From IMG/VR virus record IMGVR_UViG_3300031851_000001: 64,000 nucleotides of DNA; one strand, 5' to 3'. Positions 45,682-64,000 of this stretch are shown one piece after another (the stretch's first letter is position 1; every line of letters begins with the position of its first letter). The notes below the pieces were generated by a model. That model saw only the letters and a program-made list of their open reading frames with translations, did no database searches and was not told where the DNA came from. A program made the position numbers and the translations under genes. The DNA comes from a virus (lineage: Duplodnaviria; Caudoviricetes).

Positions 45682-46164
45682 ATGTACGAGTATAGAGCAA
45701 ACATTAATAGAGTAGTCGACGGCGACACAGTAGACTGTGATATTGAATTGGGCTTCGGCGTGGTTTTAGCTGATGAAAGAGTGCGAATTATGGGTATTGA
45801 TACACCAGAATCGAGAACATCAGATAAAGTCGAAAAGGTTTTTGGTCTAGCAGCCAAAGAACAGTTAAAGAAATTATTAGGTAAACAATGTATTCTTAAA
45901 ACACAAATTGCGCGTAATGGTGAGGATATGAAAGGTAAATTTGGACGTATCCTTGGCGATTTTATTGCTGAAGATGGTAGAATGATTACCGATATCATGG
46001 CAGAAACTGGACACTGCGTTCCTTATATGGGTGGATCTAAAGAAGATACACAAGCAGGACACGAGGCGAATAGAAAACGTTTATTGAGCGAAGGTGTTGT
46101 ATCAAAAGAAGCATACGACAAAGCAGTAAAAATTATGGAAAAGAAGGCGAAAAAGAATGGATAA
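45682..46164 (+). CDS. SNase-like (thermonuclease) nuclease
   Basis: RVVDGDT, VRIMGIDTPE, KFGRILG. Confidence 0.88.
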   Translation: MYEYRANINRVVDGDTVDCDIELGFGVVLADERVRIMGIDTPESRTSDKVEKVFGLAAKEQLKKLLGKQCILKTQIARNGEDMKGKFGRILGDFIAEDGRMITDIMAETGHCVPYMGGSKEDTQAGHEANRKRLLSEGVVSKEAYDKAVKIMEKKAKKNG

Positions 46165-46474
46165 CTTTACGTTAGCAGAATTACAAGAAATGGTTGACAA
46201 CTTAAGTACTGGTACTATTTTAGCGTCAGCAGTTTACGTACATATGAATGCATCAGGCGAAGGCGTATACGATGCAACAGATACTGACGGCGACAATGGA
46301 CACGTTTATATAACCGATCGCGGGGCTTCTGGATTTACAATTAATATAAATTCATTAATTACTGCGGAAGACGTTGTACATACATACCCTACATATGGTG
46401 AAAACGAAGAAGGTGAAATGATTGTAACTGGTGAATCTGGTAAAAACCAAGTTGCTGAAGACGAATATAATTAA
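46157..46474 (+). CDS. Acidic hypothetical protein
   Basis: 105-aa ORF. Confidence 0.65.
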   Translation: MDNFTLAELQEMVDNLSTGTILASAVYVHMNASGEGVYDATDTDGDNGHVYITDRGASGFTININSLITAEDVVHTYPTYGENEEGEMIVTGESGKNQVAEDEYN

Positions 46475-61623: not shown

Positions 61624-62173
61624 GAATTAATAAATGTAATCTGTCTTCGTCAGAATTATTTTCAACCATATGTGGGTAGTGAATGTTTAAAACAAACGAT
61701 GAACCGGGATGATATGGTATTTCCTCGCCGTCCATAACAAACTTACTTCCCTTTGGATATGTAATAGATATATTAAGAGGATCCAGCCAGTTATGTTCTG
61801 GCACATCGATATGTTCAGCAATATAACCACCAGATTTTATAACAAGATATCTGACATCATCTATTCGAGCATATGGTAATGAATTAACAAAATCCATAGT
61901 TGCAGGACATTGCTTTCCAATTTCAGTAATATCCTTTTTAACTTTACGTCCATATTCCCAATGACTATTTGTATTATCAGAAGCAGTGCCGTATAATGTC
62001 ATAGCAAACCAATCCTTATGACCATCCTCTGGTCTATGGATAACTAATGAGTCTTTGACTAATTTATATTCTTTTTCTATATCAGAGCAAGGAACATTAA
62101 AGTTCATCTTTACCCAATGTGCGTCGCTACTTCTTTGCATGATGATCACTGTGGTTTCCTTCAAGTGGAGCAA
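61571..62173 (-). CDS. Asp/Asn beta-hydroxylase-like 2OG-Fe(II) oxygenase
   Basis: EHID, PHMVEN...RLHLLIH. Confidence 0.8.
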   Translation of the reverse strand: MLHLKETTVIIMQRSSDAHWVKMNFNVPCSDIEKEYKLVKDSLVIHRPEDGHKDWFAMTLYGTASDNTNSHWEYGRKVKKDITEIGKQCPATMDFVNSLPYARIDDVRYLVIKSGGYIAEHIDVPEHNWLDPLNISITYPKGSKFVMDGEEIPYHPGSSFVLNIHYPHMVENNSDEDRLHLLIHGKKKKEFWNDIAELRM

Positions 62174-62693
62174 AAAGATTTATCCACCATTTATTAGCAG
62201 CGCCGTCGTCGTCATGGGCTACCAAATTAAGTAATCCGTAAAACATAAATGATGTTGGTAATAATAACAATAAATGCGCAAGAAATATTGGATTTATATA
62301 AAATGCTACAATATAAGTTATAACGAAAACATATAATTTGTTCTTGTGGAAAAACATAACTCTTGGATTATTATAAAGGTCCTTTACAAACTTTCTTGGT
62401 ATATGCTTTACTTTATAAGCCGAAAACAATACTTCATACCATTTTTTATATTTTGGACTATGTGGGTCTAACTCAGTATCAGCATATGCGTGATGCATAC
62501 GATGAACGCCTGCCCAACTTAATGGCGAACATGCGCTAGCCATAGTACCTAAGTAAATTATTATTGTTTCTAATATTGGGTGCAGTTTTATTTGCTTATG
62601 TGATATGCATCTATGATACCCTATCGTCAACCCGACAGCAGCTACTACCCAATAAAATATATAAAAGTGGACTAAAAACATAATTATCCTCAA
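62127..62693 (-). CDS. Membrane acyl (delta-9-like) fatty acid desaturase
   Basis: His boxes GYHRCISH, HRMHH, HSDHH; DLDPHSP-like ELDPHSP. Confidence 0.85.
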   Translation of the reverse strand: MRIIMFLVHFYIFYWVVAAVGLTIGYHRCISHKQIKLHPILETIIIYLGTMASACSPLSWAGVHRMHHAYADTELDPHSPKYKKWYEVLFSAYKVKHIPRKFVKDLYNNPRVMFFHKNKLYVFVITYIVAFYINPIFLAHLLLLLPTSFMFYGLLNLVAHDDDGAANKWWINLFAPLEGNHSDHHAKK

Positions 62694-62708
62694 AAACCTT
62701 CATGTAGT

Positions 62709-62716
62709 TATTTATA
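62709..62716 (-). promoter_or_regulatory. Late promoter of desaturase/oxygenase operon
   Basis: TATAAATA on minus strand. Confidence 0.7.
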
Positions 62717-62720
62717 TCTA

Positions 62721-62861
62721 TTGACATTGTTTGAAAACCGTATATAATAGATTTATCTACTAAACAATAATAATAGTTGTTATAATGGCTGTAACAAAAT
62801 AGTAACAGTATTTTTATTAAAATGGAAATCTATTGACATTTTAGCTCTACTGTATTATATA
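62721..62861 (+). promoter_or_regulatory. Tandem sigma70 promoters for tmRNA/porin
   Basis: TTGACA at 62721 and 62833, each followed by a TATAAT-like -10. Confidence 0.65.
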
Positions 62862-62865
62862 TAAC

Positions 62866-63150
62866 TAGTGAACGTTGAAATGACGTGAATACGGATCGGA
62901 CCTCGGGGCAGTACCGAGCATCTCCACCAAATTTACTCTGTAGGGTAAAAACTGATAATTTACTTTGTAGAGTAAATTTGATGGGGATGAACAAGGATCG
63001 ACGGACGGAATAGCTTAATGGAGTTCATCGGGTGATCGCGTATAGATCAATTAAACTAAATGCAAATGAAAATTTCGCACCATCTGGATTTGCTCTAGCA
63101 GCATAATCACAGGGGGGTTGTCCACTTACCTAGCAACAGAAAAGTGGTAC
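62866..63150 (+). ncRNA. ssrA: Circularly permuted (two-piece) tmRNA
   Basis: Acceptor piece ends CTCGG-GGCAGTA-CCGAG-CATCTCC-ACCA (62929). Coding piece starts GGGGATG (62983) with G3-U70. Tag 63062-63106 reads ANENFAPSGFALAA*. Confidence 0.93.
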
Positions 63151-63181
63151 TTAATAAAACTATTACAAGGAAAAAGGTAAC

Positions 63182-63970
63182 ATGGGTAAATTCTTATTAA
63201 CAACGGCACTAACTTTGGTAGCCGGTGCAGCGATTGCACAGGAAGTAACCGAAGCACCAGTAGGATTAACTGGTAAAATTGAAACAGTAATTGCTGAAGG
63301 TGCTGGTGGAGATTGGGGTGCAACGTCATCTTTTGATCTTGGCGTATCTGCAGGATCTGGCTTAGCATCAGGTTCTATGTCTTTCGTCGTTGACTCAAAT
63401 AACGATTTGGCTTTAGACGAATATTCAATCGGTACATCAATCGGTGGAACTGAATTGTCATTTGGAGACCAAGGCAATATTTGGATTGACACAGAAAACG
63501 GTTCTTCTATTGAAGAAGCAAAGATTGCTGATGAAAGCATTCAAGCAACTATCGCAGGTGTATCAGTAGCAGCCGGCTTAAACATGGATGATTTAACTGA
63601 CATTCAAAACGTACAAGCTGGTTACGGTATTCCATTAGGAATTGCTAACATCAACGCAGTAGGTGACTATAACCTAAACAGTGAATCATGGATTGTAGCA
63701 GGTCGCGCAGACACAGACGGTATGTTGGAAAATGTACGTATCGGTGGTGCAGTATCATACGGTTCAATTTCAGAAAAACTTGGCTTTGAAGCTGACGCTA
63801 CAGTAGGACCATTAACTGGTTATATTGGCGGTGACCAAGATGATCTAATGAAAGATGCAGGCGTTAATGGTGAAGTTGCTGTTGCAGGTATCGATGTAGA
63901 AACTAAATTGAACTATAACTTTGACAGTGAAGAATTAACACCATCAGTTGGTTTAAGTTTCAACTTCTAA
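63182..63970 (+). CDS. Outer-membrane porin-like beta-barrel
   Basis: Signal peptide (AAIA), alternating amphipathic strands, C-terminal VGLSFNF. Confidence 0.8.
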   Translation: MGKFLLTTALTLVAGAAIAQEVTEAPVGLTGKIETVIAEGAGGDWGATSSFDLGVSAGSGLASGSMSFVVDSNNDLALDEYSIGTSIGGTELSFGDQGNIWIDTENGSSIEEAKIADESIQATIAGVSVAAGLNMDDLTDIQNVQAGYGIPLGIANINAVGDYNLNSESWIVAGRADTDGMLENVRIGGAVSYGSISEKLGFEADATVGPLTGYIGGDQDDLMKDAGVNGEVAVAGIDVETKLNYNFDSEELTPSVGLSFNF

Positions 63971-64000
63971 GTTTATAAAAAATCAATACTTTAGAGGGGC

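Follow-up and report, generated by a model that had tools for sequence, protein, structure and literature searches.

Identification of the locus and its carrier

The window, that is, the whole 64,000-nt stretch of DNA analysed here (IMG/VR record IMGVR_UViG_3300031851_000001), carries a complete two-piece ssrA gene of the alphaproteobacterial type and belongs to an uncultured marine T4-like phage. With ARAGORN, a permuted tmRNA bearing the tag ANENFAPSGFALAA is predicted at 62837-63197 on the plus strand, and two Rfam models match the same region: RF01849 (alpha_tmRNA) at 62813-63151 with 104.5 bits and an E-value of 1.8e-27 (gathering cut-off 50), and RF04321 (tmRNA_permuted), which scores 100.7 bits (cut-off 47) over 62868-63106. 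The acceptor signature occurs once in the window, compared with no occurrence in 100 shuffles. Circular permutation is confirmed by the order of the parts: the T arm and the 3′ acceptor strand with its CCA, which ends at 62929, lie upstream of G1 (62983) and the tag frame. The initial annotation, made from the sequence alone, had proposed a phage-encoded permuted two-piece tmRNA with its own tag and had suggested ARAGORN and an Rfam alpha_tmRNA search as a check; both searches bear the proposal out, and each element that it named is found where it had placed it.

The replication and repair genes of the window are of the T4 type and include a UvsW helicase, Rad50/Mre11-like gp46/47, a family B polymerase (PolB) and a split type II topoisomerase; a cytosine methylase, radical-SAM enzymes and four tRNAs are encoded as well. 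The polymerase shows 43% identity to those of cyanomyophages, 42% to that of Melnitz and 40% to that of HTVC008M, and on these values we regard the phage as a lineage of its own that splits off deep within the marine T4-like phages. The window stops 830 nt past the tmRNA, and the IMG/VR relative L060, a 47.7-kb contig, was used to view both flanks. In this relative a denV-like glycosylase gene and a dNMP-kinase-like gene lie upstream of ssrA, and on its other side a homologue of the ORF found downstream in the window is followed by csgF and csgG; no curli gene lies within the window. The gene neighbourhood in L060 indicates that ssrA is internal to lytic phage DNA and does not mark a prophage-host junction. 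The activity of tmRNA depends on the protein SmpB, for which no gene was found in the six frames of the window, itself only part of a genome whose remainder could encode one, or in the whole genomes of Melnitz and HTVC008M; three bacterial controls gave 172-192 bits.

Anatomy of the RNA

All elements described here lie on the plus strand. The acceptor piece (62868-62929), supported by sequence reading, ARAGORN and Rfam, comprises the 5′ strands of helix P2, the T arm, the strand CAUCUCC, the discriminator base and an encoded CCA. Sequence reading places the T stem CUCGG/CCGAG at 62902-06 and 62914-18, enclosing the T loop GGCAGUA (62907-13); this loop fits the GGCRGUA consensus of RF01849, as against GGUUCGAUUCC in the general permuted Rfam model, and had rightly been taken as a sign of the alphaproteobacterial form. 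The acceptor stem is formed by GGGGAUG (62983-89) and CAUCUCC (62919-25). Alanine identity is conferred by a G3·U70 pair, and the alanine identity set is complete here, with a 7-bp acceptor stem containing G3 (62985)·U70 (62923), the discriminator A62926 and CCA at 62927-62929, the last two read directly from the sequence.

Between the two pieces lies a 53-nt spacer (62930-62982) that holds two copies of UUUACUYUGUAGRGUAAA and no ORF. It is predicted to fold into a hairpin of about 20 bp stacking on the acceptor stem (-16.6 kcal/mol), and by this model the hairpin should be removed on maturation. No further copy of the repeat unit exists in the window or in the 283 loci searched, and the idea that it represents a dispersed element was rejected on that ground. 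Matches of the spacer hairpin to miRNA families (E 0.006-0.6, far under the cut-offs) are attributed to a general resemblance among hairpins.

The 5′ part of the coding piece (62983-63061) contains the GGGGAUG strand, the D-loop analogue AACAAGGAUCGA, the 3′ strands of P2 (63002-07 and 63023-28) and a covarying hairpin (63033-63049) that precedes the resume codon. The pieces are joined by a 6-bp helix between GUGAAC (62868-73) and GUUCAU (63023-28); the pairing of AGUGAAC with GUUCAU proposed in the initial annotation holds for these six pairs, but not for A62867, which has no partner. In a second inter-piece P2 pairing, between CGG-UCG and CGGACG, five of the six pairs form. The tag frame (63062-63106) opens with the resume codon GCA at 63062, encodes the peptide ANENFAPSGFALAA and ends with UAA at 63104-06. 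It is followed by the 3′ pseudoknot domain (63112-63147), in which GGGU (63115-18), within a run of G, pairs with the loop bases ACCU. The 3′ hairpin of this domain, CCACUU/AAGUGG (63122-27/63142-47), has the loop ACCUAGCAACAGAA, and the motif UAGCAACAGAA lies inside that loop at 63128-63141; the hairpin with its conserved loop ACCUNGCAACAGAA and the pseudoknot (63115-63147) are therefore present in the window. The energy of the two-piece co-fold is no better than that of shuffles (z = -0.7) and is uninformative. At 63112-63117 the window has six G, compared with five in the contigs of all four RNA runs described below (one letter fewer at 63112); the difference is either one between populations or a homopolymer error in the window assembly, and it leaves the pseudoknot, as predicted, undisturbed.

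Promoters and the downstream porin-like ORF

Two early-type sigma-70 promoters precede the tmRNA on the plus strand. The distal one, P1 (62721-62748), has TTGACA, a 16-nt spacer and TATAAT, and agrees with the consensus at 12 of 12 positions. The proximal one, P2 (62833-62861), has TTGACA, a 17-nt spacer and TATATA; it was missed by the consensus scan because its -10 box lacks the final T. Its predicted start, at about 62868, coincides with the first base of the acceptor piece, and its -35 box is conserved in sequence and position in the viral contig L110. Both belong to a promoter class made up of (A/T)CTATTGACATT, 16-17 nt, and then TATAAT, TATATT or TATATA, which occurs at 30 sites in the window (14.2 +/- 3.7 expected), and they are its only two perfect copies. 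Judging from its motif and recurrence, this class is evidently the phage's early sigma-70-type promoter, and it could help to map the early transcription units of the phage. Sites of the class include 7418(-), 20477(-), 20905(-), 29564(+), 36624(+), 46490(+), 46925(+), 47224(+), 62717(+) and 62829(+), and several copies share the spacer sequence ...TAGAATCAGT...

A porin-like outer-membrane beta-barrel ORF of 262 amino acids (63182-63970, plus strand), with a signal peptide and the C-terminal sequence ...SFNF, starts about 35 nt past the 3′ hairpin (63147 to 63182). Its Atlas feature matches are virus-only clusters (0.97-0.98) and Porin_4 clusters (0.94); it has no Pfam or PHROG match, and tblastn gave no match in isolate phages, including Melnitz and HTVC008M. 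The ORF is syntenic behind ssrA in five other contigs (L008, L060, L100, L030 and L064). No intrinsic terminator was found between the 3′ hairpin of the tmRNA and this ORF, and for that reason the two are probably co-transcribed; a U run follows the 3′ hairpin in the relatives L060, L079, L093 and L009.

Conservation among viral copies

A search of IMG/VR with the alphaproteobacterial acceptor pattern returned at least 120 contigs, most of them with 29-42% G+C, and ARAGORN finds permuted tmRNAs in 72 of the contigs listed. The assessment of selection on the structure drew on some 110 different viral homologues. Every one of the 122 viral homologues listed has a fully paired T stem, with 22 different stem sequences among them, and the three free positions of the stem are always paired, each by two to four pair types. 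In 115 of the 122, a 5′ acceptor strand with complete complementarity follows downstream, far more than the roughly 6% expected by chance; this count is partly circular because the best partner was chosen. In a plain MAFFT alignment of the viral copies listed, the inter-piece helix is paired in 81-90%, with AU, UA, CG and GC all common. Covariation is also seen in the hairpin that precedes the resume codon (GAUC/GAUC, GACC/GGUC, GACU/UGGUC). The 3′ hairpin is kept in 102 of the 115 viral coding pieces listed, with 59 distinct stems. The pseudoknot 4-mer and the first four loop bases are fully paired in 75.5%, as against 44.5% in a mismatched control, and the compensatory pairs among homologues are GGGU/ACCU (the window), GAGU/ACUU, GGGC/GCCU and GAGC/GCUU. 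Judged by this covariation, the RNA structure is shown to be under selection across the viral homologues.

The tag differs from that of the viral contig L066 (ANDNFAPSGFALAA) by six synonymous changes and one conservative E/D change, a pattern of substitution that shows the peptide to be under purifying selection and to be read as a peptide. A 14-residue tag class is typical of the viral copies; the 26 cellular tags sampled have mostly 10-13 residues.

RNA and DNA from natural samples

The stretch occurs in near-identical form in marine DNA runs from 14 studies and in six RNA-library runs, and the locus offers a clean, intact example of such a gene from an abundant uncultured phage, with defined promoters. 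Four of the RNA runs, from four studies (X6, X16, X18 and X19), were compared over 62300-64000. The contigs of X16, X18 and X19 begin at 63002/63003, cross the tag frame as well as the 3′ hairpin, enter the porin-like ORF and reach 63619, 63982 and 64000, respectively; apart from a spurious 19-nt piece in X19 (62439-62457), these three runs do not cover 62300-63001. Because the cover is one-sided, RNA is a better explanation for it than DNA contamination. In X6, an oligo-dT library, a single contig spans 62381-63204 and thus the whole tmRNA locus, and the porin-like ORF is covered by RNA contigs in all four runs. The RNA evidence consists of assembled contigs, not raw reads, and neither strand nor abundance nor true ends can be read from such contigs; in X19, the contig adjoins an Illumina adapter at 63003, so that this end is that of a real molecule. 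The 62-nt acceptor piece is too short for ordinary libraries, and its absence from RNA contigs says nothing either way.

The position 63002/3 lies 19-20 nt downstream of G1 (62983), where the single-stranded D-loop analogue meets helix P2a, and no promoter-like sequence precedes it. It could be a true cleavage end, a point at which reverse transcription stopped, or the result of 5′-terminal sequence being lost while the library was made. The contigs are the first natural RNA to hint, if weakly, at a coding part that is separate from the spacer and the acceptor piece and runs on, co-transcribed, into the porin-like gene. In X6 and X19, loose ends at 63113 and 63145-63149 belong to other tmRNAs that share with the window only the 3′ hairpin region and whose tags end in ...SGYALAA* and ...SDFALAA*; from these differing tag ends it follows that several related tmRNAs are present in RNA libraries of the same samples.

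Comparison with known systems

Two-piece tmRNAs have already been published for related marine phages, and the copy in the window is well supported but ordinary. Listings of phage tmRNAs go back to at least 2014 (PMC4131195). A 2022 study that described alpha-type two-piece copies in marine T4-like myophages, Melnitz, HTVC008M and Mosig among them, counted 53 two-piece forms among 133 unique phage tmRNAs and found two-piece ssrA in 17 of the 47 contigs of the Melnitz/pelagimyophage cluster (PMC9004378). The view in the initial annotation that phage tmRNAs are uncommon does not fit these counts or the at least 120 IMG/VR contigs reported above; in this phage group they are common. What sets the window apart is a spacer hairpin of its own, two early promoters in tandem, a porin-like gene as neighbour and the RNA ends seen in natural samples. 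The tmRNAs of marine T4-like phages are widespread and, to our knowledge, none has so far been tested for function.

Like Melnitz, HTVC008M and Mosig, the phage of the window is a marine T4-like myophage with an AT-rich genome and an alpha-type permuted tmRNA, and it shares with Melnitz a 14-residue tag ending in YALAA. In Melnitz (MZ577097, ssrA annotated at 45984-46436) alpha_tmRNA scores 106.7 bits and the tag is ANDNYVPVDYALAA; in HTVC008M (NC_020484, 145103-145414; locus L278) it scores 83.8 bits and the tag is ANFNEYALAA. The RefSeq record of HTVC008M carries no tmRNA feature, and the match overlaps the 3′ end of a hypothetical CDS, gp194 (144891-145181). As in Melnitz and the pelagimyophages, an early promoter lies upstream and curli genes (csgF/csgG) lie nearby, the latter seen in the relative L060. 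Unlike these phages, the window has a 53-nt hairpin of its own as spacer and a porin-like ORF as neighbour, in place of the genes for the gp33 coactivator and gp59, and it shows no extended nucleotide similarity to Melnitz, HTVC008M or Mosig. A glutamine riboswitch in the 3′ domain of ssrA is described for Melnitz and Mosig only and is a common, not a defining, feature (PMC9004378); the window lacks it, as no riboswitch family reaches its gathering threshold or, within 62000-64000, an E-value of 1 or less.

The two-piece tmRNA of the Alphaproteobacteria has the same order of acceptor before coding piece, the GGCRGUA T loop, G3·U70, the encoded CCA, inter-piece P2 helices, a tag of the form ANxNF...AA and the 3′ hairpin loop ACCUNGCAACAGAA, whereas the gene in the window is virus-borne, has phage promoters and belongs to the longer, 14-residue tag class. 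Passages of PMC9004378 and PMC11915505 that cite Keiler et al. 2000 present Caulobacter as the experimental model of a two-piece tmRNA, and the same two sources, the former again citing Keiler 2000, describe processing of a precursor by tRNA enzymes into two base-paired pieces. The ssrA of SAR11 (Pelagibacteraceae), the hosts of pelagimyophages, is likewise of the alpha type, in two pieces and set in AT-rich marine genomes, with tags of nine residues (ANESYALAA, ANESYAIAA, ANDKFALAA and similar) that are shorter than that of the window. The mycobacteriophage Bxz1 group, Bacillus phage G and the RNA of mycobacteriophage DS6A resemble the window in that a phage ssrA is found without a phage SmpB (PMC4131195); unlike the gene in the window, those RNAs are unpermuted or truncated, come from phages of other host phyla and are unrelated in sequence.

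Proposed function and alternatives

We consider it probable that the locus is a functional ssrA of a lytic marine T4-like phage that performs ordinary trans-translation on host factors and sustains ribosome rescue after host shut-off. Host RNA polymerase would transcribe it early from the two tandem sigma-70 promoters into one precursor containing the acceptor piece, the hairpin spacer and the coding piece. Host tRNA-processing enzymes would remove the spacer, RNase P cutting at G1 and trimming exposing the encoded CCA, and the two resulting RNAs would be held together by the acceptor stem and the P2 helices. The RNA would be charged with alanine by host alanyl-tRNA synthetase through G3·U70 and, assuming compatibility with the host, delivered by host SmpB and EF-Tu to ribosomes stalled on broken messages. 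Since no SmpB was found in the window, Melnitz or HTVC008M, host SmpB, alanyl-tRNA synthetase, EF-Tu, RNase P and proteases would have to serve. The nascent chain would gain ANENFAPSGFALAA, whose ALAA end would direct it to host Clp-type proteases; LAA-type ends are the known degron of tmRNA tags. The initial annotation had suggested that a variant tag might reroute proteolysis. This is not what the tag indicates: it ends in the canonical ALAA, as do 46 of the 72 viral tags listed and many of the cellular tags found, and should therefore feed usual Clp-type proteolysis. The likely benefit to the phage is that rescue would continue after host transcription has been shut off and host nucleic acid degraded, when non-stop messages would increase and host tmRNA would not be replenished.

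Several other explanations have to be weighed against this one. It is unlikely that the RNA serves mainly proteolysis, early tagging of the products of degraded host messages feeding amino acids to phage synthesis. Such a role has been put forward as an alternative for Melnitz (PMC9004378) and would suit the early-type promoters, the retained ALAA degron and the purifying selection on the peptide, but tagging reaches only the chains on stalled ribosomes and would yield few amino acids, and sequence data cannot separate this role from rescue. A role in counter-defence, the idea put forward in the initial annotation, in which the phage copy would replace host tmRNA or tRNA-like RNAs cut by a defence nuclease, is decidedly improbable. 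The phage does carry four tRNAs, and the RNA ends at 63002/3, in or next to the single-stranded D-loop analogue, could mark a cleavage site; a cut there, however, would fall in the phage's own copy, which argues against protection, and no nearby gene resembles an anti-defence gene, nor did a literature search bring up a nuclease that targets tmRNA. We judge very unlikely an interference of the phage RNA with host trans-translation through titration of SmpB, the mode of inhibition described for molecules that consist of the tRNA-like domain only, such as that of mycobacteriophage DS6A (PMC4131195). The lack of a detected phage SmpB would agree with it, but the tag frame, resume codon and pseudoknot are intact and selected, and an inhibitor would not need them. 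Least credible of all, and hardly to be believed, is a functionless passenger acquired from a host or a temperate phage, for instance as the remnant of an attachment site. Integration frequently takes place at tmRNA genes, pieces of which are common in phages (PMC9004378); the gene in the window, by contrast, is complete and not a 3′ fragment, lies within a lytic T4-like genome behind phage promoters and shows covariation across some 110 viral homologues, and none of the sampled genomes offers a close cellular donor.

The porin-like ORF calls for separate consideration. That the locus is chiefly a processed leader for this gene, or the source of a "headless" tag RNA without the acceptor strand, maturation of the tmRNA being coupled to expression of the porin, seems to us quite unlikely. 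The absence of a terminator before the ORF, as against the U run in four relatives, the same gene order in five other contigs and the RNA contigs from three studies whose first base lies 19-20 nt within the coding piece and which extend into the ORF all speak for such a leader. Contigs spanning two genes, however, do not prove a single transcript, the porin-like neighbour is found in just 5 of the 120 related loci listed, and every part of the tRNA-like domain is conserved and covarying, which a mere leader would not need. An unlikely variant is that the tmRNA and the porin-like gene form one processing-coupled unit, the coding piece being made as the 5′ part of the porin message and giving a "headless" tag RNA. 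If this were true, much of the RNA in nature would begin where the D-loop analogue joins helix P2, 19-20 nt into the coding piece, and lack the acceptor strand. The tag RNA would double as the porin leader, and the level of porin would depend on how the tmRNA is matured or cleaved, or the dependence would run the other way. Ordinary trans-translation by a functional phage ssrA remains the reading that we prefer.

Origin of the gene and assignment of the host

Across the viral contigs listed, 401 alphaproteobacterial genomes and SAR11, extended relatives of the tmRNA in the window were found only among viral contigs. L110 has 82.7% identity over 196 nt (promoter, acceptor piece and spacer), L008 has 79.7% over 202 nt (coding piece) and L060 has 75.9% over 199 nt. 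A block of about 95 nt (62898-62992) is nearly identical to 806-900 of L110 and contains the T arm, the acceptor strand, the entire spacer (52 of 53 positions identical) and the first bases of the coding piece; its flanks diverge strongly, both in the P2 region upstream and in the tag region downstream, where L110 encodes ANANIALAA. This pattern of identity suggests recombination inside the tmRNA gene, which would make the gene a mosaic. A blastn search of the tmRNA against 50,697 phage records gave no match, the exact 32-nt acceptor sequence is absent from the viral and genome collections, and in the 401 sampled alphaproteobacterial genomes BLAST matched only the universal acceptor core of about 35 nt. 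A genome search with the acceptor pattern returned almost only Pelagibacteraceae, and the 120 mostly SAR11 loci share with the window an acceptor core of 33-37 nt and no similarity outside it.

The type of the tmRNA suggests that the gene was derived from Alphaproteobacteria at some point in the past, and the initial annotation had gone further and read it as identifying the host class. This step does not hold. Melnitz carries an alpha-type two-piece ssrA and infects OM43, which is not an alphaproteobacterium (PMC9004378); the cellular matches are confined to the acceptor core; and the tRNAs of the window are not SAR11-like, their best SAR11 match scoring 71.6 bits, as against up to 98.7 bits in other alphaproteobacteria. 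The best tRNA matches, 88-95% over 58-81 nt, lie in non-SAR11 genomes and are too weak to assign a host. Taken together, these three lines of evidence mean that the tmRNA type cannot assign the host class. It appears that such ssrA genes are passed down and recombine within phages instead of being newly acquired from hosts, and for this reason, too, the tmRNA type should not be taken to name the host.

Two observations from related loci may be added. The contigs L167, L172 and L174, which are labelled Candidatus Saccharimonadales (MAGs), carry the alpha-type acceptor signature and are probably mis-binned alphaproteobacterial or phage DNA. In L060 (7952-12671), csgF and csgG are followed by genes for a FecR-domain protein, a CHASE2 adenylate/guanylate cyclase, a class 3 lipase and a staphylococcal-nuclease homologue, a set of signalling and envelope genes after the curli genes that is unusual for a phage.
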